Shown here: piece by piece, positions 20,540 through 35,962 of the stretch | How the letters are laid out: each line of letters opens with the position of its first letter | How positions within the stretch are numbered: position 1 is the stretch's first letter | Translations under genes and position numbers: made by a program | Assembly (NCBI GenBank): GCA_038231275.1 | Contig: JBBRLQ010000016.1 | Location: forward strand, 64,001-128,000 | Direction of reading: 5' to 3' | DNA from: Polyangiales bacterium | GTDB taxonomy: Bacteria > Myxococcota_A > Polyangia > Polyangiales > Polyangiaceae | DNA length: 64,000 nucleotides | Notes under the pieces: generated by a model | Databases searched by the model: none | Seen by the model: the letters and a program-made list of their open reading frames with translations, nothing else | Told to the model about the DNA's origin: nothing

Positions 20540-21159
20540 AGCGACTCCTCGCCTTCGCCTTCGCCCTCGCCGTGACCGCCTGCGGCGCGGCGACTCCGAC
20601 TCCGACTCCGACTCCGACTCCGACTCCGACTCCGACTCCGACTCCGACCCCGACCCCGACCCCGACTCCGACTCCGGCTCCGGCTCCGACTCTCGGCGTC
20701 GGCGTCGGCGCGGACAAGATCGCCCCCTACACTCCCGAGCAGATCCGCGACGCCACGCCGGAAGGACGCACCTACCGCTACCGCATCGTCCGCGAGGGCA
20801 AGCCTGTGCGAATCGACGAGATGAAGTTCGTCCGTGTCGACGCGCAGGGGGCGGATGTCTCGAGCACGTCACGCGAAGAGCCCGCCGCGGCCACCGAGCC
20901 AAAGATCAAGACGGTCACGTGGGCCGAGCTGCGTGCGCACGGCGAGTTCCCGCGCGCGCTCGTCACCGTCGCGGACGAGCCCGTCGACGTCCCCGCCGGC
21001 CACTTCACGTGCATGGTCTTCACGCTGAAGGACGCGGCGAAGAACGAGGTGTCGCGGTTCTACTTCGCGCGCGAGATTCCCGGCGCGCCAGTCCTCTACT
21101 TCACCGAGAAGGATGGCAAGCGCGTGATGACGGCGACGCTCCTCGAGCATCGCCGGTAG
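20536..21159 (+). CDS. Hypothetical lipoprotein with Thr-Pro linker
   Basis: Lipobox VTAC; (TP)14(AP)2 linker; VDVPAGHFTC motif; ATGA coupling to the upstream gene. Confidence 0.8.
   Translation: MKRLLAFAFALAVTACGAATPTPTPTPTPTPTPTPTPTPTPTPTPTPAPAPTLGVGVGADKIAPYTPEQIRDATPEGRTYRYRIVREGKPVRIDEMKFVRVDAQGADVSSTSREEPAAATEPKIKTVTWAELRAHGEFPRALVTVADEPVDVPAGHFTCMVFTLKDAAKNEVSRFYFAREIPGAPVLYFTEKDGKRVMTATLLEHRR
20593..20688 (+). repeat. Hexanucleotide repeat (ACTCCG)n, 16 units including variants
   Basis: 9x ACTCCG, 3x ACCCCG, 2x ACTCCG, 2x GCTCCG. Confidence 0.95.
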
Positions 21160-21268
21160 CCGGCCGCATCGAACTGGGACCACGCGATGCTCCACGTCAC
21201 CGCCACCGCGCCGCGCCCGCCTGGAGCCATGACCATGCGCCGCGCGTAGGTGTCCCTCACGGCGAGGA

Positions 21269-21283
21269 GACGTCAGTGACGTC
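21269..21283. promoter_or_regulatory. Perfect palindrome, candidate regulator binding site upstream of cheX
   Basis: GACGTCA-G-TGACGTC in a 360-bp intergenic region. Confidence 0.35.
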
Positions 21284-21470
21284 GGGGTTCGAGCACGAAG
21301 CGGGAGAGAAGGAACTCGTCGGCAAGTCGGCTTTTTTGGCGGCCCGCCCGTCGGGCTCCTGAGGTCCGCGTCGGTGCGCGTGTACGCCAAACTCCGACTT
21401 TCTTTCTCAGGTCGTCGGAGCTCTTGGCCGTTCCACGCTTCATGCGCGACCCGTCTGCACGCCTCCTTCG

Positions 21471-21486
21471 CGGCGCACCTGCTGCT
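21471..21486 (+). promoter_or_regulatory. Possible sigma54 promoter for the cheX-led cluster
   Basis: CGGCGCACCTGCTGCT (GG-N10-GC), followed by a GAGGAGG RBS; weaker consensus match. Confidence 0.4.
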
Positions 21487-21518
21487 CGCACCGGCGCGTC
21501 CCGAGGAGGCCTTGCGCC

Positions 21519-22061
21519 TTGAGCCTCTCCGACGAGCTGCAACGCCTCGTTCCGAACGCGTGCGAGGAGGTCCTGTCCTCGATCGGCTTCCGCGCGAAGG
21601 GATCGAGCTTCGGCGACGTGACAGGCGTGCTCGCGCGGCCGCAGGAATACGCGGCGGGGATGACCGACTTCTTCGGCGAGGCGATGACCGGGAAGCTCGT
21701 GCTGGTGAGCACCTTCGACTTCTTCGCAAAATCCGGCCCCAATCGCTGCACGCCGCTGAACATCGAGTCGGCGCGCGACTGGATCCGCGTGCGTGACTGG
21801 ACAATGGAGCTGTCGAACCAGCTCGTCGGGCGCGTGAAGAACCGGCTCTGCACGCTCGGGGTCTCCCTGGACACGCGCCTCCCCAAGGCGGCGTCGGGCC
21901 ACGCGCTCACCGTCATCGTTCGCGAGCGGAAGCGTCCCCCTATCCTCTTCATCGCGGGCGGGCACGACGTCCGCGTCTGGTTCGAGGCGACCGTGAACGA
22001 GCAAGCCGGTCGCGGGCCCCGTGTCGATCCACTGGGCGAAGGGGACGTCGTCTGTTTCTGA
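21519..22061 (+). CDS. cheX: CheX/CheC-like chemotaxis phosphatase
   Basis: DWTMELSNQLVGRVKNRL contains the ExxN catalytic motif; size and GxxxF.G...G.LVL strand pattern fit CheX. Confidence 0.78.
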   Translation: MSLSDELQRLVPNACEEVLSSIGFRAKGSSFGDVTGVLARPQEYAAGMTDFFGEAMTGKLVLVSTFDFFAKSGPNRCTPLNIESARDWIRVRDWTMELSNQLVGRVKNRLCTLGVSLDTRLPKAASGHALTVIVRERKRPPILFIAGGHDVRVWFEATVNEQAGRGPRVDPLGEGDVVCF

Positions 22062-22138
22062 GCGGCGCTCCTACCCCGCCCCACCAAAGGAAGGCGGACC
22101 GATCAAGTCGGGGTGGTCACCAGCCGTTCCTCCAACGG

Positions 22139-24340
22139 ATGGCCTCGTTCACATCACGGCCCGAGGTGCGCGCAGAGAACGGAGCGCGACGACGCTTCGT
22201 CTCTGTCGGCACCAAGCTGACGGGCGCGATGCTCGTGGTGCTGTGCGTCGTGACCGGGTTCGCCTACTTCGAGGTGAGCCGGCACGAGACCGAGGTGCTC
22301 CTGTCGTCGAAGGCGCGCGCGGCGTTGATGGTGAGCGATCTGTTCGCCGCAGGCGTGACCGCTCCGCTCTCCTTCGGCGACGAGCCTGGCGTGCGCGAGC
22401 ACATCGCCCAGCTGATGGCGAACGCCAACATCGTGTATGGCGGCGTGTGGGCCGTCGATCCGGCGCATCCCGGGGAGCGCGGCGAGCTCGTGGGTGAAAC
22501 GGCGCGGGGGTCCGACGTTCCCCCAGCGCCGCGGGAGATCCCCGCCAAAACCAACCTGACGGGCACCCCGCTCGTGTTCGTCGTCGAAGAGCCGGTTGCC
22601 GGCGCTTCGGGCGAGCTCCTAGGTGTCGCGCGCGTCGCGTTTTCGCTGCAGCCCCAAAACGCCGCGATCGCGGCCGCGAAAGACCGGACGTTGGCGACGT
22701 CCCTGGCGATGGGCTTCGTCCTCGCCGCGGTCCTCCTCGCGCTCTCGCGCACGCTGGTCGTCCGCAGGCTCGCCAGCCTCGCCCGCGCCGCCAAACGCCT
22801 GGAGGACGGCAGCGACGTCGACGTCGACGTCGACAGCAACGATGAAGTCGGCCACCTCGCACGTGCGTTCACGAGCATGAGCGCCGCCATCGCCAGCCGC
22901 GAAGCGCGCATCGTCTCCCGCAACCGCGACTTGAGACGCGTCCTCGACAACGTGGCCGAGGGCCTCATGACCGTCAAGAAGGACGGAGCGATGTCCGACG
23001 AGCGCTCCCGCGTCCTCGACCAGTGGTTCGGCGTCCCCGCGGAGAGCGCGAAGATCTTCGACTACTTCGAAGCCTTCGCGCCGGAGGTCGGGCGACTCTT
23101 GCGCATCGGCTGGCTCGCGCTCGAGGATGATTTCATGCCCGTCGAGGTGATCCTCGATCAATTGCCGCGACGCTTTCGCCACGGCCCGCGCGCCTTCGAC
23201 GTCGACTACTCGCCGATCTGGAAGGGTCGCGACAACGAGCTGGTCTTGGACGAGATCCTCGTCGTGGTGCGCGACGTCACGTCGTCGGTCGAGCGCGAGC
23301 GGGCCGAGCAAAGTCAACGCGAGGCGCTCCGCGTATTTCGGCACATTTTGCTCGATCCCGCAGGATTCCGCGGGTTCATGCAGGCTACCGCGCACCTCCT
23401 CGACGTCATCGAGCAGAACGCGCACGACGCGCCGCGCTCGCGCCGCGACATCCATACGCTCAACGGCAACGCGGCGCTCTACGGGCTCGAGAGCCTCTCC
23501 GCCGCCTGCCACCGCATCGAATCGCGTCTTCAGGACGAAGGGGGCGCGCCGACCGCCGCGGACCTCGTGGAGCTCCGCGCCGCGTGGGACCTCGTGTGTG
23601 CGCTCGCGTCGGATCTCGACGGACCGGCGCGGCGGCCGCACGTGGAGCTCCGGACCGAGGAGTACGAGCGTCATCTCGCGGAAATCGAGCGTGGCGCCGC
23701 GCATGCAGAGCTCGCCGCGACCGCGCGCGCATGGACCCACGAGCTCGCCGAGCGCCGCCTCGAGCGCATCGTCGAACAAGCTCGCTCGATCGCGCGGCGC
23801 GTGGGCAAGGCCGACGTGACGATCGAAGCGCACGCCCGACCCACCGCGTTGCGTCTCCCCGTGGCCCGCTGGGCGCCGTTTTGGAGCGTCTTCACCCACG
23901 TGCTTCGCAACACCCTCGATCATGGCATCGAGACGAACCAGGAGCGCGTCGCGACGGGAAAAACCGGGAGCGGCCGCGTCGACATCACCCTGTCGACGAC
24001 GCGCACCTCCGTCGAGCTTCGCGTCGAGGACGACGGTGGTGGGATCGCGTGGGAAAAAGTACGCGAGCGCGCCGTCGGGCTCGGCCTCGCCCACGACTCC
24101 CACTCGGATCTGGAGGAGGCGCTGTACGTCGATCGCATGACCACACGCCACTCGGTCACCGAGATCTCGGGTCGCGGCGTCGGCCTCGGGGCGGTCCGCG
24201 AGGTCGTCGTCGGCTGCGGTGGCACGATCGCCCTCGAAACCTCGCCCGGCCGCGGCACCGTATTCGTGTTCCGATTCCCCCTCGCCATGCTCGAGGACGC
24301 ACGAAGCAGCGCGCCGTCCACGACCCCCAAGGTGGCGTAG
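22139..24340 (+). CDS. Membrane sensor kinase: TM-periplasmic-TM-HAMP-PAS-like-HPt-CheA-type HATPase, no CheW domain
   Basis: Two TM helices; HAMP (SNDEVGHLARAFTSM); VLDNVAEGL; HPt RDIHTLNGNA; RNTLDHGIE, VEDDGGGI and EISGRGVGL CheA-type boxes. Confidence 0.9.
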   Translation: MASFTSRPEVRAENGARRRFVSVGTKLTGAMLVVLCVVTGFAYFEVSRHETEVLLSSKARAALMVSDLFAAGVTAPLSFGDEPGVREHIAQLMANANIVYGGVWAVDPAHPGERGELVGETARGSDVPPAPREIPAKTNLTGTPLVFVVEEPVAGASGELLGVARVAFSLQPQNAAIAAAKDRTLATSLAMGFVLAAVLLALSRTLVVRRLASLARAAKRLEDGSDVDVDVDSNDEVGHLARAFTSMSAAIASREARIVSRNRDLRRVLDNVAEGLMTVKKDGAMSDERSRVLDQWFGVPAESAKIFDYFEAFAPEVGRLLRIGWLALEDDFMPVEVILDQLPRRFRHGPRAFDVDYSPIWKGRDNELVLDEILVVVRDVTSSVERERAEQSQREALRVFRHILLDPAGFRGFMQATAHLLDVIEQNAHDAPRSRRDIHTLNGNAALYGLESLSAACHRIESRLQDEGGAPTAADLVELRAAWDLVCALASDLDGPARRPHVELRTEEYERHLAEIERGAAHAELAATARAWTHELAERRLERIVEQARSIARRVGKADVTIEAHARPTALRLPVARWAPFWSVFTHVLRNTLDHGIETNQERVATGKTGSGRVDITLSTTRTSVELRVEDDGGGIAWEKVRERAVGLGLAHDSHSDLEEALYVDRMTTRHSVTEISGRGVGLGAVREVVVGCGGTIALETSPGRGTVFVFRFPLAMLEDARSSAPSTTPKVA

Positions 24341-24395
24341 GCGACACGCTTCTTTCGGCTACAGGCTGGAGCCGACCGCCCGTTCACCTGAGGTC

Positions 24396-25622
24396 ATGGA
24401 CCGGACCCGCGCCGCAAACTTCGACCGGAACGCAGACCACGGGCAGGTCACGCACGACGCAGGCGAGGTCACCGGCATCCGGAAGAGCGTGCCCGCGCGG
24501 GCCTCGCGAACGCGCGTCGAGGTGGACCTCGCGGCGATCGTCGCCAACGCGCGCGACGTGAAAGAACGCGTCGGCCACGGCACAGGCGTGCTCGCGATGC
24601 TGAAGGCGAACGCGTACGGCCACGGTCTCCTCCCGGTCGCCCACGCGCTCGCGCTGGACGGGACGATCGCGGGCATGGTGGTCACGACGCAAGCCGACGG
24701 CCTCGCGCTCCGCCGGAGCGGCATTGGGACGCCCATCCTCGTCCTCGGTGCCGGCTCCGTCACCGATCCTCGCGCCGGGCTCGACGCGGGGCTCGTCCCC
24801 GTCCTCGCGTCGGTCAGCGATCTCGAAGCCGTGGCGCGCGCGGCGCGGGCGCGAGGCCTGCGTGCGGCCGTCCACGTGAAGCTCGACACGGGAATGGGGC
24901 GCCTCGGCGTGAAGGAGGCCGACGTTCACGCGTTCCTGCGCGCGGCGAGCCGCTGTCCCGAGATCGCGATCGTCGGACTCTGCACGCATCTCACGTCCGC
25001 GGACGACGGCGATCCGGCGCAGAGCGATCACCAGCTCGCGGCCTTCGAAGGGGCATACGCGGCCTTCGCCGCCGCCGGGCATTGGCCGACGGAGCTCCAC
25101 GTCGCGAACACCGCGGCCACGTTTCGTTTACCCCGTACGCACTTCTCGCACGTGCGCACCGGGATCGCGCTGTTCGGAGGCGACGAGCCGAGCGGCGCGC
25201 GACTACGGCCGGCGATGCGGCTCGTCACACACGTCGCCGAGGTCCGCGCCGTGGCGACGGGCGACGGTGTCTCGTACGGCGCGACGTGGCGTGCCCCGCG
25301 CCCCTCGCGGATCGCGACGCTCCCCGTCGGCTATTCCTCGGGCTACCCGCGACGGCTCGCCGGGCGCGCCGAAGTGCTCGTCCACGGACGCCGCTGCCCC
25401 GTGGTCGGCCTCATCTGCATGGAGGCCTGCATGGTCGACGTGACGGACCTTCCCTTCGACGTGACCGTCGGCGACGACGTCGTGCTCTTCGGAGACGACG
25501 GTGCGGACCGGATCCTCGCGACCGACCTGGCGCAGGCGACCGGTGGAATCGTCGAAGAAATTTTTTGCGGCATCCCACGAGACCTGCCGCGCGAATACCG
25601 CGACGCGGGAGCCCCACGATGA
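24396..25622 (+). CDS. alr: Alanine-racemase-family PLP enzyme with atypical active-site entry residues
   Basis: KANAYGHG (PLP Lys), HVKLDTGMGRLG, VRTGIALFG, GVSYG (catalytic Tyr). Substrate may not be alanine. Confidence 0.88.
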   Translation: MDRTRAANFDRNADHGQVTHDAGEVTGIRKSVPARASRTRVEVDLAAIVANARDVKERVGHGTGVLAMLKANAYGHGLLPVAHALALDGTIAGMVVTTQADGLALRRSGIGTPILVLGAGSVTDPRAGLDAGLVPVLASVSDLEAVARAARARGLRAAVHVKLDTGMGRLGVKEADVHAFLRAASRCPEIAIVGLCTHLTSADDGDPAQSDHQLAAFEGAYAAFAAAGHWPTELHVANTAATFRLPRTHFSHVRTGIALFGGDEPSGARLRPAMRLVTHVAEVRAVATGDGVSYGATWRAPRPSRIATLPVGYSSGYPRRLAGRAEVLVHGRRCPVVGLICMEACMVDVTDLPFDVTVGDDVVLFGDDGADRILATDLAQATGGIVEEIFCGIPRDLPREYRDAGAPR

Positions 25623-28600
25623 CGTCCCTCCGAGCCACGACACGCGCATCCCTGGACGATACGGGTCTCCTCGCGATCGCCGGTGCCCACTCGGCGTCAC
25701 CGGGGGCCGCGCTCATCGGCGTCGTCGCGGGCTTGCTCACGCGTTACTCCGGCAAGACCGCGGTGACGTTGCGTGTCGACGTCGACGGCGTCGCCCGCCG
25801 GTTGCGCGTCGACGTCGATGGAGCCCCGAGCACCGGTGAGCTCGTTTCCCGCGCCGAGGTCGCGCTCGCCGCCGCCGTCGCCGACGAGAGCCGGTCGGAA
25901 GGGCACGCGCTCCCGGGAATCGTCGACGACGCCGATGTGCACGTCGTGCTCGGCCCGGTGACGGACACGGAAGGCGCCGATCTGGTTATTTCCGCGTCGA
26001 AAGGCGGCATCGATCTCGACTTCGGCGCGCGCATCGAAGCCATCGCGGCGGACCGGATCACGTCCCACGTGTCGACGCTGATCGCGGCGATGGCGTCCGC
26101 CGCCGACGCACGCGCTGCGGTGGCGATGCCCGTGGCCTGTTTGCCCCTGGTCGATGGGGAAGAGCACGCCTGGCTCCTCGCGCGCTCGAACGCCTGCAAC
26201 ATCCTCTGGAACGAGGCGCTCCCCAGCGTCGTCGCCCTGTTCGAGGCGCACGCGCGGAAAACGCCGGACGCTCCCGCACTGCAAGAGGGCGCCCGCACCT
26301 ACACGTACGCGGAGACCAACGCCGCCGCCGATGCGTTGGCTGCACTACTGCGTGCGCGCGTCGGCGACGAGAATCGACGCGTGGCCGTGTACCTCGAACG
26401 CGGCGCGTACGCCGTGATCGCGTTCCTGGGAATTCTCAAGGCGCGCGCGACGTACGTGCCGATCGACGTCACCTACCCGCAAGGGCGTGTGGCCGCGATC
26501 CTCGCCGTGGCGGCGCCCGCCGTCCTGCTCACCCGCGCCGCGTTGTCCGCGGACGCGTCGGCGAGCCTCGAATTCGCGCCCCCTCGCGTGCTCGTCGACG
26601 ATCCCGCACGCGACGAAGCCGAAGGCGCGCGCATCGTGGACGTGCCGCCCGGCGCGACGACGGTGCGGCCCGACGACATCGCCTACACGATCTTCACCTC
26701 GGGCTCGACGGGCCAGCCGAAGGGTGTCGTCGTCGATCATCGAGCGCTCGCCAGCTACGCGCGCGCCGTCACCGACGCCTACGGCCTCGGCGCGCATGAT
26801 CGAGTCCTCCAAGCCGCGTCGCTCGGCTTCGATCTCAGCCTCGAAGAGATCGTCATCACGTTGACCGCCGGCGCGTGCCTCGTCTTCCGCAGCGCCGCGC
26901 CCATCGCGTCGGTCCAGTCGTTCGTCGCCGAGTGCGACGCCGCACGCCTCACCGTCCTCAGCATCACGTCGGCGCTCTGGCACGAGCTGACGCTGCGCCT
27001 CGACGACGGCTCCGTGCGCCTCCCGGAGCGCGTGCGCCTCGTGATCCTCGGCGCGGACGTCGCGCGCCCCGACATCCTCACGGTGTGGAGGCGCGCCACC
27101 GACCCGTCGATACGCCTCGTGAACAGCTACGGTTTGACTGAGACGACTATCGTTGCGACGGTGTGGGAAGACACGCGCGCGCCGCTCGGCGAAGGTCTCC
27201 GCGCGTTGCCCGTAGGACGGCCTCTCCGCAACGCCTCCACCTACGTGCTCGACGCGCACTCCGCGTTCGTCCCCGTCGGCGTCGCCGGCGAAGTCTGCGT
27301 GGGCGGCCTCGCGGTCGCGCGTGGATACCTCGGCGACGAAGCGCTCACCCGCGCGCGGTTCGTACCCGACCCGTTTCTCCCCGGCCATCTCATGTACCGG
27401 ACGGGCGACCGCGGCATCCTCGGAGCCGGCGGCGACCTGCAGTTTCTCGGGCGCGCCGACTACCAGATCAAGGTAAACGGCGTACGCATCGAGCTCGGGG
27501 AGATCGAGACGCGGCTCCGCGAGCTCCCGGGTGTCGTGGAGGGCGTCGTCGTCGCGCAAAAAAACCACGCGGGCGAGACCGAGCTCGACGCGCACGTGAT
27601 GGTCACGTCGTCGGCGGTGACCGCGGAAGCACTGCGGGCACACCTGCAGCTCGTCATCCCGCTCGCAGCCGTCCCCGCGCGATTCCACGTAGTCGACCGT
27701 TTCCCCCTCACGCCGGCGGGCAAGATCGATCGGCGCGCCCTCGCCGCACGCGTGACGCCGTCGTTGCGGGTCGCCGGCGTGGACCAGACGCCGCCGTCGA
27801 CGCCGACCGAAGAGCTGGTCGTGCGCGCGATCGCCGAGGTCCTCGGTCGGCCCAGCGTGGGCGTTCTCGACGACTTCGTCCGCCTCGGAGGGACCTCCTT
27901 GGCGGCGGTCCGCGCCGCGTCGCTCCTCGCGCATCGAATGTCGCGGCCCGTGCGCGCACAGGTCTTCCTCGACGGGAGAACCCTTCGGGAGGCATCGGCG
28001 GACCTCGCGAGCCCCATGCACACCCACGCCACGTCGCTCGTTCCATTGGGATCGATCGCGCGCGATCAGGCGCTCGATCCGGCGATCGTCGCGCTCGGCG
28101 ACGTCGCGGGTCGGGGCACGCTCGCGAACGTGCTCGTGACCGGCGCCACCGGCTTCTTCGGCGCCTTCGTGCTGGCCGAGCTCCTCCGCGAGACGTCGGG
28201 CCACGTCACGTGCATCGTGCGCGCCGCGTCGCTGGAGGAGGCACGCGCGCGACTAGTCGCGAACGCCGAGCGTCTCGAATGCGGCATCGAGCCCGACGCG
28301 TGGTCGCGGGTGACCGCGGTCGCGGGAGACCTCGCTGCGCCGTTCTTGGGCCTCGCCCCCGCCGACTACAAGCGCCTCGCCGCCACCGTCGACACGGTCT
28401 TCCACGTCGGCGCGCGCGTGAACATGATGCTGCCGTATAGCGCGCTGCGCGGGAGCAACGTCGTCGCCGTCGAATCCGTCCTTCGCTTCGCCACGACCGC
28501 GCGCGCGAAGACCGTGCACCACGTCTCGACGGTGGAGGTCCTCGCCGACACCGATCCGGGCGATCCCCAGGCGCGCCAAGAGCGTCGCGCCGCGGCCACG

Positions 28601-29308
28601 CCCGAGCTCCTCCACGAGGGGTATGGGCAAACGAAGTGGGTCGCCGAAAAGCTCGTCGAGGAGGCCCGCGCACGGGGAATTCACGCGTACATCCACCGGC
28701 CGGGGAGGCTCATGGGCCACTCGCGCACCGGCGCGTTCAACGCCGAGGATTTCCTCGTTCGCATGCTCGCGGCGTGCGTCGAGCTCGGCGCCGTTCCGCA
28801 CCTCGAGACGACCGTCGATCTCACGGCCGTGGACGACGCGAGCCGCATGCTCGTGCGCCTCGCGCGACGTTGCCCCTCGCGGGTCGACACGTTCCACCTC
28901 GTCCACCCCGAGGGGAAGACCTGGGCGTCGCTCGTGGCGGATCTCGGGCGTACGGGCGCGCGCGTGCAACTGCTCCCCCACGCCGAGTGGCAAGAGCTCT
29001 TGCAGAAACGCGCGGCGACGAGCGAGCGCGGCGACTTCTTGCGGTACTTGGCGGGAATGTCAGGCGATGTGCTGGAGGCCCAGATCGCCGGCGGCTTCGC
29101 TTCGGACAAGACCCGCGCCGTGCTGGAGGCGGACGTCTCGTGCGCGCCCGTCGACGCGCGGCTCCTCGCGACGTACATCCGCGCGCTGGGCACCGCCGGC
29201 ATCTTCCCCGCGCCGACGCCGTCGCTGAGCCCCAAGACGCGCGGCTCCGTCTTCCCTCCGCCGCGAGACGCGCGCGGCCGCGTGCAGAGCGCCGAAGAGA
29301 CGTCGTGA
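25619..29308 (+). CDS. Stand-alone NRPS-like enzyme: truncated C-like domain, adenylation, PCP, thioester reductase
   Basis: ATGA-coupled to the racemase. A-domain cores YTIFTSGSTGQPKG, FDLS, NSYGLTE, GEVCVGG, YRTGD, RIELGEIE, PLTPAGKIDR; PCP FVRLGGTSL; R domain VTGATGFFG, HVST, GYGQTKW. Confidence 0.93.
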   Translation: MTSLRATTRASLDDTGLLAIAGAHSASPGAALIGVVAGLLTRYSGKTAVTLRVDVDGVARRLRVDVDGAPSTGELVSRAEVALAAAVADESRSEGHALPGIVDDADVHVVLGPVTDTEGADLVISASKGGIDLDFGARIEAIAADRITSHVSTLIAAMASAADARAAVAMPVACLPLVDGEEHAWLLARSNACNILWNEALPSVVALFEAHARKTPDAPALQEGARTYTYAETNAAADALAALLRARVGDENRRVAVYLERGAYAVIAFLGILKARATYVPIDVTYPQGRVAAILAVAAPAVLLTRAALSADASASLEFAPPRVLVDDPARDEAEGARIVDVPPGATTVRPDDIAYTIFTSGSTGQPKGVVVDHRALASYARAVTDAYGLGAHDRVLQAASLGFDLSLEEIVITLTAGACLVFRSAAPIASVQSFVAECDAARLTVLSITSALWHELTLRLDDGSVRLPERVRLVILGADVARPDILTVWRRATDPSIRLVNSYGLTETTIVATVWEDTRAPLGEGLRALPVGRPLRNASTYVLDAHSAFVPVGVAGEVCVGGLAVARGYLGDEALTRARFVPDPFLPGHLMYRTGDRGILGAGGDLQFLGRADYQIKVNGVRIELGEIETRLRELPGVVEGVVVAQKNHAGETELDAHVMVTSSAVTAEALRAHLQLVIPLAAVPARFHVVDRFPLTPAGKIDRRALAARVTPSLRVAGVDQTPPSTPTEELVVRAIAEVLGRPSVGVLDDFVRLGGTSLAAVRAASLLAHRMSRPVRAQVFLDGRTLREASADLASPMHTHATSLVPLGSIARDQALDPAIVALGDVAGRGTLANVLVTGATGFFGAFVLAELLRETSGHVTCIVRAASLEEARARLVANAERLECGIEPDAWSRVTAVAGDLAAPFLGLAPADYKRLAATVDTVFHVGARVNMMLPYSALRGSNVVAVESVLRFATTARAKTVHHVSTVEVLADTDPGDPQARQERRAAATPELLHEGYGQTKWVAEKLVEEARARGIHAYIHRPGRLMGHSRTGAFNAEDFLVRMLAACVELGAVPHLETTVDLTAVDDASRMLVRLARRCPSRVDTFHLVHPEGKTWASLVADLGRTGARVQLLPHAEWQELLQKRAATSERGDFLRYLAGMSGDVLEAQIAGGFASDKTRAVLEADVSCAPVDARLLATYIRALGTAGIFPAPTPSLSPKTRGSVFPPPRDARGRVQSAEETS

Positions 29309-30930
29309 CCGCTCCTTCGATGGAAGACGGCCCGAAGGTCGAGCGCTCGCTGTCACGGCGCGACGTCGTCCTCTTCCTCGTGTGCACGCTCGTCGGTCTC
29401 GACACGCTGGGCAGCGTCGCGGCCCACGGGGGCGAAGGCTTCGTGTGGCTGCTTGTGATGGCCGCGACGTTCTTCGTCCCCTACGCCCTCACGGTCGCCG
29501 AGCTCGGCGCCGCGTTCCCCCAGGAAGGCGGCGCGTACGTGTGGACCAAGCTCGCGTTCGGCCGCTCCGTCGCCGCGCTGAACGCCGTCTTCTATTGGAT
29601 CTCGAACCCGATCTGGCTCGGCGGCGCGCTCACGATCACCGCCATCACCACGTTCGAGACGTTCTTCGTTCCCCTCGGCCTCGTCGGCAAGTGTGTCTTC
29701 GGGCTCGCGCTGGTCTGGGGTTCCGTCGCGAGCGCCGTCGTCTCGCTTCGTGTCGGCGCGTGGATCACCCGGTGCGGCGCGGTTGCACGCGTGGCCCTCC
29801 TCGTTCTCTTCACGGGCACCGTCGCCATCTACGCCGCACGGCACGGCGTCCACGGCGCGCGTCTCCCGCAATTTTCGCCGACGTACGACGGTTTTTTCGC
29901 GGTCGTGCCGCTCCTCTTCTTCAACTTCGTCGGCTTCGAGCTTCCCAGCGCCGCCGGCGGAGAAATGGTCGATCCTCGCCGCGACGTGCCCTTCGCCGTC
30001 GCGCGCGCAGCCATCGCGGCCGTCGTTTGCTACGGCGTCCCCATCCTCGCCATCTTGCTGGTCCTCCCCACGGAGCGCATCACCGGGCTCAAGGGCTTCG
30101 TCGACACCATGCAGCTGGTCTTCACGGTGTACGGCGGCCACGTACAGCCCGCCGCCGGCGGCGGCGAGATCGTCGTCCTCGAAGGGGCCGGCAGAGTCAT
30201 GGGCGCCGTCGCCGCGATCGGCTTCATCGTCGCGCTCGCGACGAGCGGCATCACCTGGATCATGGGCGCCGACCGAAGCCAGGCGGTCGCCTGCCTCGAC
30301 GGAGGCGGCCCGCGATGGCTCGGCTCGTTCGAGAACCGGTGGGGTACGCCGGTGGCCCTCAACGTGGCCTCGGGCATCGTCGCCACGCTGGTCATGCTCG
30401 CGGCGTTCGCGGTCACCGGCGGCGACTCCGAGAAATTCTTCGCCGCGTCGTTGAACCTCGGAATCTCCACGACGACGCTCTCCTACCTCGTCATCTTCCC
30501 CACGCTCTTCCTGCTCCGACGGAAATCCCGCGACGTCGCGCGCCCCTACCGCGTGCCCGGCGGCGACGTCGGGGCGTTCGTCGCCAGCGTGCTGACCACC
30601 GGATGGGCCTGTTTCGCAGCGATCGGGCTCCTTTGGCCAGGCTTCGGCCGGCGCGGCGATCCCGACGCGGCGTTGCCCTCCGGCTTCGTCACCCTCGACG
30701 CGCATGGAATGGTCGTGGCGTCCGAGCGGGCGCTCTTCGAGCTCACCCAGATCGTACCGCTCGTGATTTTCCTCGCGCTCGGCGTTCTTCTCCTGGCGCG
30801 CGGGCGGCGCGAGCGAGCGCTCAAGGAGCGACCCGTCTCCGCGCCTGCACGCGCCTCAAGCCTTCGCCCTTCGCGCCGTTCATCCGAAGGATGCATCTCC
30901 GTTCGCCCGGCTCGCTTGTCCGTGCCCTGA
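29305..30930 (+). CDS. APC superfamily amino-acid/polyamine permease
   Basis: GTGA-coupled to the NRPS; AELGAAFPQEGGAYVWTKLAFG, FNFVGFE, RPYRVPGG; about 12 TM helices. Confidence 0.92.
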   Translation: MTAPSMEDGPKVERSLSRRDVVLFLVCTLVGLDTLGSVAAHGGEGFVWLLVMAATFFVPYALTVAELGAAFPQEGGAYVWTKLAFGRSVAALNAVFYWISNPIWLGGALTITAITTFETFFVPLGLVGKCVFGLALVWGSVASAVVSLRVGAWITRCGAVARVALLVLFTGTVAIYAARHGVHGARLPQFSPTYDGFFAVVPLLFFNFVGFELPSAAGGEMVDPRRDVPFAVARAAIAAVVCYGVPILAILLVLPTERITGLKGFVDTMQLVFTVYGGHVQPAAGGGEIVVLEGAGRVMGAVAAIGFIVALATSGITWIMGADRSQAVACLDGGGPRWLGSFENRWGTPVALNVASGIVATLVMLAAFAVTGGDSEKFFAASLNLGISTTTLSYLVIFPTLFLLRRKSRDVARPYRVPGGDVGAFVASVLTTGWACFAAIGLLWPGFGRRGDPDAALPSGFVTLDAHGMVVASERALFELTQIVPLVIFLALGVLLLARGRRERALKERPVSAPARASSLRPSRRSSEGCISVRPARLSVP

Positions 30931-31790
30931 TCACCGCCGGCCTCGTCTCCGGCGTCCTCGCCTGGGCGACGCCCTCCGCGGCGCAAGCGCCGAGTCCCGA
31001 CGATCCCACGCCACAGGCGCCGCCGGCGCCCGTCGGCATCTCCGGGCTCTTGTCGAACAGCCTCGTCCTTCGCGGAAATCCCGCCGAGTCCACACTCATC
31101 ACTGTGCTCTCCGCCGGCTACTCGTGGACCCCCGCGCTGTCGACGTTCGTGCGCATTGGATCGGTGCACAATGCATCCAGTGACACGTCGAGCGCCACCG
31201 GCCTCGCCAATCCCGCGCTCGGGGCGAGCCTGCAATTTCCCATCGGAAAGCACTTCATCGTCGGCGGCACCTCCGGGCTCACGCTCCCCATCGGCTCCGG
31301 CGGCGGAAACGGGCCTTCGGCGGCGGCCTTTCGCGCGTGGAACAACAGCATCGACTGGGGCGGCGCGATGTTCGCCGTCGACCACCTGGACATCTTCAAC
31401 GGCGTCCGCGCCTCGTTCGCCGCGGGCGCGCTCACCGTCCAATTCGAATCGATCCTCCACGAGCTCGTGCGCGTACGCGGCGAGGCCATCGACCCCATCG
31501 GCGCCGCCGCGAGCGTGACAGGCACCACGGCGACGGTGTCGTACGCGGTCATCCCACGACTCACCCTGTCGACCGCGCTCTCGGAGACGCGCTTCTGGAA
31601 CACGCCGGTCTACATTACGCAAAGCCCTGACTCGCGCGTCGACTACTTCTTCTCCGCGGGAGCCTCGACGAGCCTGAAATTGGGCGCGCTCGATCTCACG
31701 CCAGGCCTCGTGTACGCGCGCGCGCTCGATCTGCCGCTCGCAACTTCCCGCTTTCAGGTGCTCGAGGCGGATATCGGTTTCTCGCTTTGA
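30891..31790 (+). CDS. Probable outer-membrane beta-barrel protein
   Basis: Signal peptide ending AAQA; alternating amphipathic strands; C-terminal EADIGFSL; GLANPALG resembles myxobacterial transporter barrels. Confidence 0.6.
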   Translation: MHLRSPGSLVRALITAGLVSGVLAWATPSAAQAPSPDDPTPQAPPAPVGISGLLSNSLVLRGNPAESTLITVLSAGYSWTPALSTFVRIGSVHNASSDTSSATGLANPALGASLQFPIGKHFIVGGTSGLTLPIGSGGGNGPSAAAFRAWNNSIDWGGAMFAVDHLDIFNGVRASFAAGALTVQFESILHELVRVRGEAIDPIGAAASVTGTTATVSYAVIPRLTLSTALSETRFWNTPVYITQSPDSRVDYFFSAGASTSLKLGALDLTPGLVYARALDLPLATSRFQVLEADIGFSL

Positions 31791-31843
31791 TTCCCGTGGT
31801 TGCCCCCTAAGCTCGCCGCCCCCTCGCGCCGTTTACCCAGTTC

Positions 31844-34063
31844 ATGGCACGCGGACGCTGGGCACGACGGAGGGGGGCTCCCATCGGGGGGCTCGTTTCG
31901 CTCGTCGCGCTCGCGTTGACGTCGGCGATCGCGCGCGCAGACGACGAAGAGGATCTCGCGGGGCTTCTCGACGAGCACGTCGTCAGCGGGGCGTCGAAGA
32001 CGCACGAGATGGCGAAGGATGCGCCGGCGACCACGTCGGTCATCACCGCGCAGGACATGCACCGGTACGGCATCCGGTCGATCGCCGAAGCGATCGATTT
32101 CCTCGGGATCGGCCTGATCACGCAGAACCCGCTCCACTCCGTCGAGATCGGCGGCCGCGGCGTCCTCGTCACGTCGGACTTCGGCAACCACGTCCTGCTC
32201 GTCGTCGACGGGCACGTGTGGAACGAGCCGTGGGACGGCACCGCCTACTTCGAGCAGGGCGCCGGTATTCCTCTCGAGATCATCGATCACATCGAGCTCG
32301 TGCTCGGCCCCGGCTCGGTTCTCTATGGCGGCAACGCGATGATCGGCGTCGTCAACGTCGTCACCAAGCGCGCCGCCTCGTACCGTGGTCTGCACCTCAT
32401 CGCCGAGGGCGGCCTCTCGCCGCAGCAGGGTAGGAACGGGGCGATCACGAGCTGGTCGCCGGCAAACCTCGGTGGCTCGTACCGCCTGGGCGCCGGCTTC
32501 GGGCACGAATTTTCGCTGTTCGGCAAACCCGCCGAGATCGTCGCCCACGCCGAGCTCTACGGGCAAGACGGTCCGTCCTTCTTGTGGGGCCCGCAAACCG
32601 CGACGACCGCCGACGGTGCGCCGCGCGACTTCGGTCCGCGCACGCCGGTCGGCCTCTGGGGCGGTCGGATCACGCAGCAATACACTACGACCGTCCCGAC
32701 GCTGTACACGCGCATGCACGTCGGCGACTGGTCGGTGATGTTCCGCGCCGAGTCGTATCGCCGCACGACGCCGACGCCGAACGGCTTCAATCAGCAGAAC
32801 ACCGACTTCGACGAGCCGCGTTCGTACGAGCGCGATCGCTTCCTCTCCCTCGACGTCCAATACAAGAAGCGAATCGGCGAGCGCTTCGACCTCTCGCTGC
32901 GCGGCTACGCGGACGCGTACGACTACTTGCAGCACACCTACAACACGGACACCAACGTGTGCGCCGTGCCGACGACCGGGCCCTGCCTCTTCCAGGGCAA
33001 GGGGCACTCGCGCTGGATCGGCGCCGAGGTGCAAGGCTCGTACGATTGGACCGGCGGAGACCGCTTCACCACGCTCGTCGGCCTCAAGGGCACAGTCCGC
33101 GACATCGGCGGCGAGACCGACTCGATCGACACGAGCAACAGCCAGACCGTTCATGTCGACGGCGACAAGACCCTCACCGAGATGGTCTGGGCGGCGTACA
33201 TCCAGCAGCGCCTCAACCCGGTTCCGGTCCTGCATTTGAACGCCGGCGCCCGCTATGACGCGGAGCCCCGCGGAGGCGATCGCGTCTCCCCGCGCGCCGC
33301 CGTCGCGCTGGACGTGTGGCGCGACGGCGTCGTCAAGCTCAGCTACGCCGAAGCATTCCGCGCGCCCACGTTCTTCGAGGCCTTCTACGAGTCGCCGAAC
33401 CAGCGGCCGAACACCGGCATCAAGTCGGAGTCGGTGCGCGGCGTCGAGTCGAGCATCGAGCAGCGCTTCGGGCGTCACAAGCTCCTGTTCGGCGTCTTCC
33501 GCACGTGGTGGAGCGACATGATCTCCATTCGCCCGATCGAGGACGGCGTCTACCAGTACGAGAACGTCTCGCGGATCGACAACTACGGCTACAACGGCCG
33601 CGTCGAAGGGGCGATGGGCGCGTTCCGTTACGGCGCGTCGGTGACCGGTGCGTACACACGACGCACGACGCCAGACGGCACCGATCCGCTCCCCGTCGCG
33701 CCGCAGCTCTTCGGAAACCTTCGCGGCTCCTACGCCCTCCCCGCGCCTTGGCCGACCATCGGGCTCGCGACCACGTTCGTCGCCAAGCGGCCGGCCGATC
33801 GCGTGCTCGACGGAAATTTCGACCCTGCCCCTTACGCGCCGGCGAGCGCCGAATTCCGGCTCACGTTGTCGCAGCTAGTCCCTGGCGTGAAGGGGCTTTC
33901 CTACCGCCTCGCCTCGTCGATCACCACGGGTAGCGTCTCGCCTTACGTCGCCGGCCCCACGCAAGGCTACGCCCCGAGCGCCTCCGCGCGAGGCCCCGCC
34001 GAGCTCACGCCCGTCATCCGTTTCGTGACCTTCGGAACGCTCCAGTACGACCTGCCGCTATGA
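31844..34063 (+). CDS. TonB-dependent receptor
   Basis: VVSGASK...APATTSVITAQD plug, IDHIELVLGPGSVLYGGNAMIGVVNVVT, LNAGARYD, SPRAA, YAEAFRAP; ends LQYDLPL. Confidence 0.93.
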   Translation: MARGRWARRRGAPIGGLVSLVALALTSAIARADDEEDLAGLLDEHVVSGASKTHEMAKDAPATTSVITAQDMHRYGIRSIAEAIDFLGIGLITQNPLHSVEIGGRGVLVTSDFGNHVLLVVDGHVWNEPWDGTAYFEQGAGIPLEIIDHIELVLGPGSVLYGGNAMIGVVNVVTKRAASYRGLHLIAEGGLSPQQGRNGAITSWSPANLGGSYRLGAGFGHEFSLFGKPAEIVAHAELYGQDGPSFLWGPQTATTADGAPRDFGPRTPVGLWGGRITQQYTTTVPTLYTRMHVGDWSVMFRAESYRRTTPTPNGFNQQNTDFDEPRSYERDRFLSLDVQYKKRIGERFDLSLRGYADAYDYLQHTYNTDTNVCAVPTTGPCLFQGKGHSRWIGAEVQGSYDWTGGDRFTTLVGLKGTVRDIGGETDSIDTSNSQTVHVDGDKTLTEMVWAAYIQQRLNPVPVLHLNAGARYDAEPRGGDRVSPRAAVALDVWRDGVVKLSYAEAFRAPTFFEAFYESPNQRPNTGIKSESVRGVESSIEQRFGRHKLLFGVFRTWWSDMISIRPIEDGVYQYENVSRIDNYGYNGRVEGAMGAFRYGASVTGAYTRRTTPDGTDPLPVAPQLFGNLRGSYALPAPWPTIGLATTFVAKRPADRVLDGNFDPAPYAPASAEFRLTLSQLVPGVKGLSYRLASSITTGSVSPYVAGPTQGYAPSASARGPAELTPVIRFVTFGTLQYDLPL

Positions 34064-34701
34064 GGACGATGGACGCCCTCCACCTGCCGTCCGCGCCGCG
34101 CGATCTTTCGCGACGGCGGGGCTTCGCGCAGTGGGCGCCGCTCTTCCTTGCGCTCTCCTTCGTGCTCACCGCGTTGACGTTCGCGCGTGACGCCCGCGCC
34201 GACGCGCGCGTTCCCGTGCAGCTCCAAGCGCAGCTGGTCGCCCGCCTCGCCACTTTCGATCGGAATTTCCAAGCGCGCGCCGGATCCGTCGTCAACGTCC
34301 TCGTCGTGCACCTCGCGGGCAACCCCGAGTCGACGTTCGAGGGGGCGAACCTGGCCAAGGCGCTCGGTGAGCTCCGCGACATCGCCGGCGTCCCCGCGCG
34401 CGTCGACGAGGCCGCCTTCAGCGACGGTGCTTCTCTGGCCACGCGCTGCCGCGATCAGCACATCTCGATCGTGTACTTCGCCGTGGGCCTCGAAGGCGAG
34501 ATGACCGCGGTCGCGAAAGCGCTGGCCGGCGTGGACGTCTTGACCGTGGGCACCGCGGCGCGTCACGCAGAGAACGGCGCCGTCGTCGGTTTCGGTCTCG
34601 AGGAAGCGCGCCCCAAGATCGTCCTCAATCTGAAGCAAGCCCGCGCCCAGAACGTGGCCTTCAAAGCGGAGCTGCTCAAGCTCGCGCGCATCGTCGAATA
34701 G
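34060..34701 (+). CDS. YfiR family (DUF4154) periplasmic protein
   Basis: ATGA-coupled to the receptor; signal peptide; VLTVG, GAVVGF, PKIVLNLKQARAQ...ELLKLARIV C-terminal signature. Confidence 0.85.
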   Translation: MRTMDALHLPSAPRDLSRRRGFAQWAPLFLALSFVLTALTFARDARADARVPVQLQAQLVARLATFDRNFQARAGSVVNVLVVHLAGNPESTFEGANLAKALGELRDIAGVPARVDEAAFSDGASLATRCRDQHISIVYFAVGLEGEMTAVAKALAGVDVLTVGTAARHAENGAVVGFGLEEARPKIVLNLKQARAQNVAFKAELLKLARIVE

Positions 34702-34743
34702 ATGCCCCCTTCAGGTCCTCGCCGCCGGGCCGTTCTCGACATC

Positions 34744-35163
34744 ATGCCTCCGAAGGTGATCGTGATCGACGACTCCGCGACCGTGCGCGAGCAAGTGAGC
34801 ATCGTTCTGGCAGCCGAGGGCTACGAGATCGTCGAAGCCGAGGACGGCGTCGAAGGAGCAAATGCCATTCGTCTCAACCCCACCGCCGCGCTCGCGATCT
34901 GCGACTTCAACATGCCGAACGGCAGCGGCCTCGAACTGCTCCAACTGCTCAAGGAGCGCGGGGATTCGGTGCCCGTCTTGATGCTCACCACCGAAGGCCG
35001 CGCCGACCTCATCGAGCGGGCGCGCGCGTTCGGCGCGAAGGGGTGGATGGTCAAGCCGTTCAAGCCCGGGATGTTGTTGGTGACCGTGAAGAAGCTCGCG
35101 CGCGCGGCCTGCCACTTGCGGGAGCTCCCGAGGAAGCCGCCGAGCGCCGGCGCGCCGAGGTAG
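34744..35163 (+). CDS. Single-domain response regulator (CheY-like)
   Basis: VIDDS acidic pocket, CDFNMP phospho-Asp, MLTTEG, WMVKPF. Confidence 0.92.
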   Translation: MPPKVIVIDDSATVREQVSIVLAAEGYEIVEAEDGVEGANAIRLNPTAALAICDFNMPNGSGLELLQLLKERGDSVPVLMLTTEGRADLIERARAFGAKGWMVKPFKPGMLLVTVKKLARAACHLRELPRKPPSAGAPR

Positions 35164-35290
35164 CGAGAGCGCGTGGTATTACCGACGCTCAGCGCGCCGA
35201 GGTAGCGAAAGCGCGTGGTGTTGCCGAGACGAGGGTGCGCGAGCTCGAAGGGGAATTGCGTCGCGTGCGCGGCGGGAAGAGTTCGGGAAG
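35110..35290 (+). pseudogene. Relic coiled-coil 3' fragment resembling the tail of Uma2-family proteins, with a 42-bp-period direct repeat
   Basis: Alternate frame reads APEEAAERRRAEVARARG...AETRVRELEGELRRVRG with no credible start. Repeat copies at 35150-35185 and 35192-35227. Confidence 0.45.
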
Positions 35291-35518
35291 TCGACTCGCT
35301 CCTGCGCGCAACGCGAAGCTATTATTGACGCGCGTACATGATTGCAAAATTTACTGATTCGCTTGGCCGCCGCCGGAGTGCTGGACCATGTCTTGGGCGA
35401 GGACGACCGTGGACCGCTCCGCGCCCTCCTGCGTGACCGTCGGCGTCGAAAAAATCGGCGTCGGAGTCGAGGTCGGAGTCGGGATCGCCGGTAAGAGCTA
35501 TCGCCGCGGGGCGTCGCC

Positions 35519-35962
35519 TCAGGGCACGTGGAACGCGTTGCAGGTGCCGTGGTGCTTTTGGTAGCCGTACCAGGAGTTGAGGCCGCCCGAGTCGTAGACC
35601 TTCTTCGCGCACGCGGCGTTCGTCGCCGGATCGAACAGCTCGCTGCGCGTCACGCCGCACGCGTGGAGCCAGATGCGATCGTTGATCTGGAAGAGCCCGT
35701 AGTCGACCGAGCCGTTGCGGTTGGTGTTCGTGGCCCTCGTGAAGTAGCTCGACTCGTACTTCGCGGTGCAGACCATCTTGGGGACGACCGACTCGTGGAA
35801 GCCGGCGTCGCGAAGGAGCTGCGCGATGTGCGAAGGCGTGAGCTGCGTCCCTGCGAGGAGCGGCGCGACGTCTTCGGTGGTGCCGGCTCCGTCGTCAGCG
35901 GAAGGATCCTCGCCGCCACACGCGAAGAGAGGGAGTAGCAGTGCAAGAGCGATTCGCTTCAT
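35519..35962 (-). CDS. Lipoprotein with c-type lysozyme (GH22)-like domain
   Basis: Lipobox LFAC; CTAKYESSYFTRATNTNRNGSVDYGLFQINDRIW...CAKKVY...GLNSWYGY matches c-type lysozyme, including both catalytic acids. Confidence 0.85.
   Translation of the reverse strand: MKRIALALLLPLFACGGEDPSADDGAGTTEDVAPLLAGTQLTPSHIAQLLRDAGFHESVVPKMVCTAKYESSYFTRATNTNRNGSVDYGLFQINDRIWLHACGVTRSELFDPATNAACAKKVYDSGGLNSWYGYQKHHGTCNAFHVP

Follow-up and report, generated by a model that had tools for sequence, protein, structure and literature searches.

Within a 64,000-nucleotide (nt) stretch of DNA from a Polyangiales bacterium of the family Polyangiaceae (the window, G000:C16:64001-128000), a block of nine genes at positions 21519-35163 was analysed. 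The source genome, G000, is 9.3 Mb in size and 94% complete; the one sequencing run found to contain this DNA is a sediment metagenome, possibly its origin. The block is a real, conserved and apparently undescribed arrangement, namely a YfiBNR-like trans-envelope circuit in which a TonB-fold receptor and a class III-like kinase have taken over and a racemase/reductase cassette is carried. The analysis further suggests, without proof, that an exported molecule derived from arginine or lysine serves as an undescribed cell-to-cell signal. The genes of the block, and the unit in which they lie, are as follows.

21156..35524, no strand: whole unit, missing from the corresponding site in both congeners (flank comparison against G001)
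21519..22061, + strand: CheX-like phosphatase (PF13690 at 17.5 bits, below the cut-off of 27; E97-x-x-N)
22139..24340, + strand: membrane kinase, in the order transmembrane segment, CHASE8, transmembrane segment, HAMP, linker, histidine phosphotransfer (HPt) domain and CheA-type HATPase (Pfam; class III-like)
24396..25622, + strand: alanine-racemase-family enzyme with altered pocket E343/E387 (TIGR00492, 266.9 bits, cut-off 168)
25619..29308, + strand: enzyme resembling nonribosomal peptide synthetases (NRPS-like), with a remnant of the C-lobe of a condensation (C) domain, an adenylation (A) domain, a peptidyl carrier protein (PCP) and a thioester reductase (R) domain (Pfam, NCBIfam, alignments)
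29305..30930, + strand: APC-family permease, optional (PF13520)
30891..31790, + strand: 12-stranded outer-membrane channel, COG4313/FapF-like, optional (fold comparison of a model)
31844..34063, + strand: TonB-dependent-receptor-fold protein (PF07715, PF00593)
34060..34701, + strand: YfiR/HmsC-like periplasmic protein (PF13689)
34744..35163, + strand: single-domain CheY-like receiver (PF00072; the longest open reading frame starts at 34702)

All nine open reading frames (ORFs) were found on the + strand in the order cheX, kinase, racemase, NRPS-like, APC permease, barrel, receptor, YfiR and cheY, as proposed in a preliminary description made from the letters of the window alone. All three 4-nt stop/start overlaps named there are present, at racemase/NRPS (25619-25622), NRPS/permease (29305-29308) and receptor/YfiR (34060-34063), and the barrel gene overlaps the permease gene by 40 nt. 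The domain identities given there agree with Pfam (HAMP, Hpt and HATPase_c; Ala_racemase N and C; AMP-binding, PP-binding and NAD_binding_4; AA_permease_2; Plug and TonB barrel in the receptor; DUF4154 in YfiR; Response_reg in CheY); CheX falls below the cut-off by score but keeps its motif, and the barrel was shown by folding. GC content at third codon positions was 0.85-0.89 for eight block genes read in frame. The start of cheY is probably at 34744 rather than 34702.

Racemase and NRPS-like genes lie inside the sensing module, in the same gene order, in six genomes from four genera of the family. All nine genes occur in order in G000, G334 and G546; G445 has an eight-gene form without the permease, and the G442 locus has neither permease nor barrel and keeps the enzymes. 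In G449, the cheX-kinase-racemase-NRPS and barrel-receptor-YfiR parts were found on two separate contigs of a putatively contiguous locus. The eight-gene form, one tree pair and two motif training sites rest on G445, an unpublished genome. Since the gene order recurs in other genera, the arrangement of the block is more than chance. The co-occurrence of enzymatic and signalling halves, for which a synteny comparison had been proposed, was thus observed, and the placement of the cassette between the kinase and receptor genes was seen in all six genomes.

Of 383 genomes of the family, 5 (G000 among them) gave a close relative of the racemase; in the sixth cassette genome, G546, frameshifts hid the racemase from the search and the locus was recovered via the receptor. 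The cassette enzymes and the kinase have diverged to ~51-64% identity among loci while their position was kept, and CheX orthologues are 45-54% identical. The receptor, kinase and NRPS trees all share the pairs G445+G546 and G442+G449. Protein searches gave discrete subfamilies, with 34 rows of the NRPS subfamily at 52-59% identity and 63 kept rows of the racemase subfamily, the relatives of both being labelled Myxococcota; the barrel has 22 close relatives at 53-73% identity. As an indirect sign of linkage, 18 of the 34 NRPS-subfamily rows match a racemase-subfamily row in exact longest-contig size. Two metagenome contigs carry permease, barrel and receptor, one of them also with the NRPS end, and a metagenome scan with the barrel returned just 2 short contigs. 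No close racemase was present in a phylum sample of 401 genomes (best 45-46%), and a GTDB-wide scan gave only ordinary racemases at 25-43%, which were reused as a residue control. A wider barrel family without a Pfam match (~30% identity) occurs in 112 of 401 genomes (order-wide), with the cassette at 0 of 10 distant loci fetched (L162-L171).

Within the genus, the ~14.4 kb between 21156 and 35524 (compared with G001) are present or absent as one unit. Both congeners are empty at the orthologous site, where 19 bp separate the flanks in G001 and 31 bp in G002; G002 also lacks two small flanking genes. In composition the block resembles the genome (GC 0.694 vs 0.692), and its tetranucleotide distance falls at the 66th percentile among 591 windows. 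As this does not single the block out as foreign, a loss from the congeners is indistinguishable from a transfer from kin. The window contains no tRNA and no Rfam match, and there were no terminal repeats among the repeats listed. The genes neighbouring the block differ between genomes, and ~8 kb of other DNA beside the empty site of G001 (G001:C75:1692-9908) suggests a variable region.

The signalling module predates the cassette and is independent of it. The receptor family was found in 101 of 383 genomes of the family and the kinase family in 47 of 151, and 24 of the 29 loci fetched have YfiR no more than 1.5 kb from the receptor. A TonB receptor, YfiR and a HAMP sensor had been named in the preliminary description as a recurring module, which is borne out by three NCBIfam neighbourhood models, NF053590 (TOL_0244 receptor), NF053591 (YfiR-like) and NF053592 (kinase near YfiR-like); all match the corresponding genes here, at scores far under the cut-off (87.7/645, 32.6/125 and 33.1/194, respectively). 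No publication on the trio was found in the literature searched, outside which most subscription journals lie. Linkage of a synthase gene to a receptor gene, as used to define autoinducer systems, was found at 6 of the 11 closest receptor loci (receptors of at least 56% identity). In the receptor tree, the cassette-linked receptors arise from among cassette-free ones. Five of them make up a firm clade, which G000 joins at 92/97. G000 joined the cassette-linked clade at 88 in a second tree, which, like the p-AU tests given below, left out G015 and five other outgroup rows. The simplest history is a single insertion into an existing module, followed by co-inheritance and optional loss of the transporters. 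In two cassette-free modules, a REC-GGDEF-EAL gene directly follows cheY (L215:5811-7970, L221:3919-6030), a possible output through cyclic di-GMP (c-di-GMP).

Binding between receptor and YfiR is supported by modelling. The YfiR gene product matches PF13689 at 48.1 bits (cut-off 24.9), and a profile search with it returned the solved YfiR at E 1.4e-4. A complex model of receptor residues 33-739 and YfiR residues 47-213 scored 0.80 (runs 0.82, 0.80 and 0.80), and the best of three controls scored 0.00. The mark for this score was reached by 116 of 157 solved pairs and 2 of 215 mismatched pairs, counts that are roughly applicable with our own alignments. The runs agree in at least 94% of contacts, with a model confidence (pLDDT) of at least 88 for the partners. 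The modelled interface includes an N-terminal helix and strand of the receptor (residues 34-48), with the tightest contacts between receptor 38-46 and YfiR 182-187 and 55-66, positions conserved in both alignments; at least 90% of 27 sequences keep receptor L41, L42, V47 and S51. Since we take receptor residues 43-47 to be where the TonB box would be, YfiR may replace or compete with TonB at the N-terminal strand. Structures of YfiB-YfiR exist, and the receptor anchor here has a different fold from YfiB.

In the kinase, His439 and the N and G boxes are intact. With E values up to 0.1 accepted, 17 of 18 orthologues matched CHASE8, the best at 1.6e-7 and the G000 copy at 0.048, below the cut-off; its periplasmic domain folds as a PDC-type domain in the model, and a fold search with the N-terminus returned WalK, CitA and dCache domains, the solved YfiN not being among them. 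Pfam gave Hpt and HATPase_c without a CheW match, and the top NCBIfam matches were CheA models, in the ATPase only. The E-x-x-N motif of CheX is kept at all 9 loci having cheX, and the DD, D, T and K residues of CheY are intact at all 9 module loci that include cheY. Among the Pfam matches of the block there was no CheW domain, CheW, methyl-accepting chemotaxis protein or CheR/CheB, so that it is not a canonical chemosensory system; CheW domains occur elsewhere in the genome, on contigs C30 and C36. Divergent kinase / YfiR-receptor paralogues without an aligned HPt histidine lie on contig C56 (8006-13018) and a lone paralogous cheX on C6 (35131-35508).

In the YfiBNR system of Pseudomonas and HmsCDE of Yersinia, an outer-membrane anchor holds YfiR by an N-terminal segment and an inner-membrane CHASE8-HAMP protein is the partner. 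The block shares with them a YfiR-family periplasmic protein, a CHASE8-HAMP inner-membrane partner and an N-terminal-segment anchor. It differs in that a TonB-fold receptor stands in for the OmpA-like lipoprotein YfiB, and an HPt/CheA-type kinase with CheY and CheX for the GGDEF output, and in the embedded biosynthetic cassette; neither OmpA nor GGDEF was matched by Pfam in the nine genes. Class III histidine kinases lack a CheW domain and combine a sensor region with HPt and a CheA-type ATPase; Adebali et al. reportedly treated them in 2017 under a title that ties them to type IV pili. The kinase here has the same HPt and CheA-type ATPase without CheW, but its family goes with flagellin, and its circuit includes YfiR and an outer-membrane receptor. 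FecARI-type cell-surface signalling relies on an N-terminal STN domain together with anti-sigma and extracytoplasmic function (ECF) sigma genes in the locus. All three are missing here: the receptor had plug and barrel matches only, and Pfam found no anti-sigma or ECF sigma gene in the block.

The racemase is a second copy beside the housekeeping Alr. K70, R169, R254 and Y294 are invariant in 64 of 64 sequences, and E343 together with E387 occurs in 61 of 64. These two positions are presumably Asp and Tyr (D313, Y354) in the usual Alr pocket; D/Y was found in 70 of 80 unselected racemase loci and E/E in none, and the other Alr of the genome is likewise without E/E. The double Glu would suit a cationic substrate. 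The first 190 residues of the NRPS-like enzyme align only to the C-terminal lobe of a C domain, starting at residue 224 of a full C-A-T-R protein (profile position ~230), and 10 of 32 members match the Pfam model. With the catalytic lobe missing, the enzyme should not form peptide bonds. The features of an A-T-R reductase are in place: PCP Ser760, TGxTGxxG and T971/Y1002/K1006 are invariant in 32 of 32 members. Three phosphopantetheinyl transferase genes are present in the genome.

Judged from its code, the A-domain pocket is probably of the Arg/Lys type. The code, with positions set by alignment, is DLESIGSIVK (Thr for the second Ser in 7 of 32), and the best solved pocket match is ApnA-A1 (4d4g; DVESIGVIAK, 7 of 10 identical), whose E204 and S243 correspond to E409 and S448. 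Passages of PMC11253843 describe E204 and S243 of ApnA-A1 as orienting Arg or Tyr, and a like Glu and Ser in the Lys-activating Pls_A. All 32 of 32 members have Ala in place of the conserved Gly that follows the third pocket strand, which, speculatively, may be tied to selection of the D-form. Cyclosporin (SimB) provides a precedent for a racemase that acts in trans to supply an A domain, and R domains release aldehydes or alcohols, as stated in parts of PMC8949500. The same parts allow a comparison with MxcG and other reductase-terminated NRPSs, which share the A-PCP-R order, the Ser/Thr-Tyr-Lys triad and the basic pocket, whereas a functional C domain and aryl-acid partners are missing here and a dedicated racemase is present, as with SimB.

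The nearest solved relatives of the permease are the antiporters GadC (E 1.6e-11) and AdiC (E 1.1e-8), both weak matches. The barrel has no Pfam match, and its model (pLDDT 79.8) resembles 4rl8 (Z 22.2, rmsd 2.6, 230 aligned residues, 14% identity) and 5o65 (Z 21.6), with a Foldseek E of 2e-9. Other 12-stranded barrels follow at Z 18-19.6, and membership of the COG4313/FapF subfamily is loose.

Aligning the DNA upstream of cheX gave a motif, T(C/T)A(A/G)-N14-16-GCCGT(T/A), which we take to resemble sigma-28 promoters. Its copies in the block are listed below.

21407..21432, + strand: TCAGG-N15-GCCGTT before cheX; a similar motif at the 5 other cassette loci
22103..22128, + strand: TCAAG-N15-GCCGTT before the kinase, its end 10 nt from the ATG; not recovered with the trained matrix; also in G360, G498 and G555
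24379-24384, + strand: weak motif CCCGTT before the racemase
30856..30880, + strand: TCAAG-N14-GCCGTT before the barrel; also in G334, G445 and G546
31808..31833, + strand: promoter-like motif before the receptor; a copy missed by the trained matrix
34711..34734, + strand: TCAGG-N14-GCCGTT before cheY, ending 9 nt before the ATG at 34744

The three block genes without the motif are exactly those entered by a 4-nt overlap. GCCGT(T/A) ends 8-11 nt before the receptor start in 8 of the 11 closest receptor loci, and this distance, kept by most copies, suggests leaderless mRNA. When a matrix was trained on 21 sites of other genomes, it recovered 3 sites in the block vs 0.23 expected; this result was relied on instead of the regular-expression statistics, which are overstated because the pattern was widened after the sites had been viewed. 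GCCGT(T/A) by itself, when its distance to start codons was profiled over the whole genome, gave no peak upstream of them, and a sigma-70 scan gave nothing above chance. The motifs point to several co-regulated transcripts rather than one. The preliminary description had treated the genes as one block, and this stands with regard to co-location and the 4-nt overlaps, while the internal promoter-like motifs argue against a single transcript. A 26-codon ORF at 21442-21522 (+) starts 9 nt after the first motif and its stop overlaps the TTG of cheX, a possible case of translational coupling. On contig C25 (3561-6164) of the same genome, a paralogous kinase-cheY pair has CTAAA-N15-GCCGTT at its cheY.

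The genome encodes FliA beside FlhA, plus four flagellins, and of the 10 other module genomes 9 had flagellin-family matches, which were weak in two cases. Flagellin matches were present in 35 of 47 genomes with the kinase family vs 31 of 104 without it, in a sample of 151 genomes whose kin are not independent. Across this myxobacterial family, flagellin genes occur in 66 of 151 genomes.

Taken together, the block may be a circuit that makes, exports and senses a reduced basic amino acid acting through CheY, the preferred reading, which we regard as about evenly balanced. An older trans-envelope sensor module would have acquired a small biosynthetic cassette that makes its ligand. The racemase would interconvert the two enantiomers of a basic amino acid (Arg or Lys), as the acidic changes in its pocket suggest; the A domain would load Arg/Lys, and the R domain, judging from the anatomy of the enzyme, would release an amino aldehyde or amino alcohol. 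Where present, the APC antiporter and the small barrel would help the product across the two membranes, in a putatively outward direction. The TonB-fold receptor is modelled as holding YfiR on its periplasmic N-terminus, and binding of the ligand from outside would change this grip. YfiR would then act on the CHASE8 domain of the kinase, by analogy with YfiBNR. With its residues in place, the kinase could phosphorylate its own HPt His and then CheY, and CheX could reset the system; the likely CheY target would be the flagellar motor or a c-di-GMP enzyme. The genes may be expressed as several short units that share the motif, putatively under one sigma-28-like factor.

A further step is possible rather than probable, namely that the signal belongs to a new class among those passed from cell to cell. 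It would be a reduced basic amino acid in D-configuration (argininol/lysinol or the aldehyde) and would be perceived at the outer membrane by a TonB-fold receptor. With YfiR taking the place of TonB, this receptor would control a CheA-like kinase and, in swimming myxobacteria, the flagellar motor. Cassette-free modules would then be eavesdropping 'solo' receptors.

Several observations weigh against the circuit. At 5 of the 11 closest receptor loci (G360, G498, G499, G555 and G425) the kinase adjoins the receptor without a cassette, and these five genomes, 81-97% complete, have no subfamily NRPS elsewhere. The G000 receptor is 75% identical to the cassette-free one of G360 vs 69-74% to cassette-linked ones, and its grouping with cassette-free receptors was not rejected (p-AU 0.23 and 0.19); nothing thus hints that the receptor was retuned for a new ligand. 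Sixteen residues fixed in the cassette-linked receptors were considered as ligand tuning and rejected, as shared descent yields the same. The transporters are dispensable, the permease being missing in G445 and G442 and the barrel in G442. The Lys three residues after the HPt His, part of HTLKG in 9 of 9 orthologues, is Asn (HTLNG) in G000. A-domain substrate codes are predictions, and a two-electron product dimerising to a pyrazine would lose its stereocentre, making the racemase pointless. By inspection, the full motif occurs at just 2 of 14 flagellin-family genes, which leaves the sigma-28 label uncertain, and 12 of the 47 kinase-family genomes have no flagellin match. The preliminary description had proposed a self-contained system; the halves do co-occur and the unit is present or absent together, but the cassette-free loci show that the module is not dedicated to the cassette, and the transporters are optional. 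Co-inheritance of the cassette supports a functional link and does not prove a ligand link.

In one alternative, which we consider unlikely, the cassette is a co-regulated passenger: the module would sense an unrelated outside cue, as the modules without a cassette have to, and the cassette, inserted once into a locus of the same sigma factor, would make a metabolite for the same (motile) state and not the ligand. A module that predates the cassette and stands alone at the five loci named above would be expected on these terms, as would a receptor without cassette-tied divergence and barrel and receptor genes with promoter-like motifs of their own, and one insertion with descent explains the synteny. 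Less easily accommodated are the position kept while enzymes and kinase diverged to ~51-64%, the presence or absence of the whole block within the genus, and the fact that the cassette brings transporters for both membranes.

The transporters also bear on a quite improbable explanation, in which a basic (D-)amino acid or an amine enters from outside through barrel and permease and is converted by racemase and reductase, so that the cassette removes or uses the sensed compound and gives adaptation without CheR/CheB. COG4313-type channels, to which the barrel has a fold match, are uptake channels, most APC permeases import, no methylation genes lie in the block, and cassette-free modules would simply sense the same environmental compound; however, the closest solved permeases are substrate/product antiporters, ATP- and NADPH-driven reduction on a carrier is a costly degradation, and the enzymes are kept in G442, where both transporters were lost. 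Very improbable, in our view, is a remnant of a siderophore-type (myxochelin-like) pathway with an ordinary TonB-driven uptake receptor and the signalling genes as bystanders. MxcG is indeed the best NCBIfam match of the NRPS-like enzyme, but at 640.8 against a cut-off of 2300 (NF038078); the basic amino-acid pocket and TonB-fold receptor that agree with this origin are set against the missing catalytic lobe, the lack of catechol or hydroxamate genes in the block, and a receptor family that stands beside YfiR in most loci and is modelled with YfiR on its N-terminal strand.

With regard to the proposed make-export-sense circuit, no description of the arrangement as a whole was found in the literature searched, outside which most subscription journals and supplements lie; the statement that it was not recognised from any described system thus agrees with the search. 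Two known systems come near it on the side of the small molecule. Valdiazen, from the ham cluster of Burkholderia cenocepacia H111, is a cell-to-cell signal that derives from a single amino acid, with an aldehyde as the proposed intermediate and a changed stereochemistry; according to sections of PMC11659414 it is a valine-derived diazeniumdiolate whose racemisation is ascribed to tautomerisation, whereas the block has a pyridoxal-phosphate-dependent racemase, a basic amino acid as predicted substrate and no N-oxygenase. Coralinone of Corallococcus exiguus is a myxobacterial small molecule from a single NRPS-type gene that alters cell behaviour, but is an NRPS/PKS pyrazinone, with no linked receptor named in the abstract (PMC10979478).

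Receptor-YfiR-kinase neighbourhoods are common and have neither ligand nor mechanism in the literature searched, and the block offers a candidate ligand that could be made by two enzymes in vitro, with natural controls that have or do not have the cassette. The modelled YfiR at the TonB-box position would provide a route for trans-envelope signalling without an ECF sigma factor. If true, the circuit would be a signalling input for flagellated myxobacteria of the Polyangiaceae type.

To the right of the block lies an exported-looking C-type lysozyme / SLT_3 gene (35519-35962, -), which is present in G001 and missing at the G002 site. A 36-nt direct repeat (92%) at 35150-35227 duplicates the end of cheY. 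A hexamer tandem repeat, (ACTCCG)n, at 20590-20690 and ~39205-39265 encodes Pro-Thr in a lipoprotein-like gene, and similar tracts occur at dozens of places in the congener G001.

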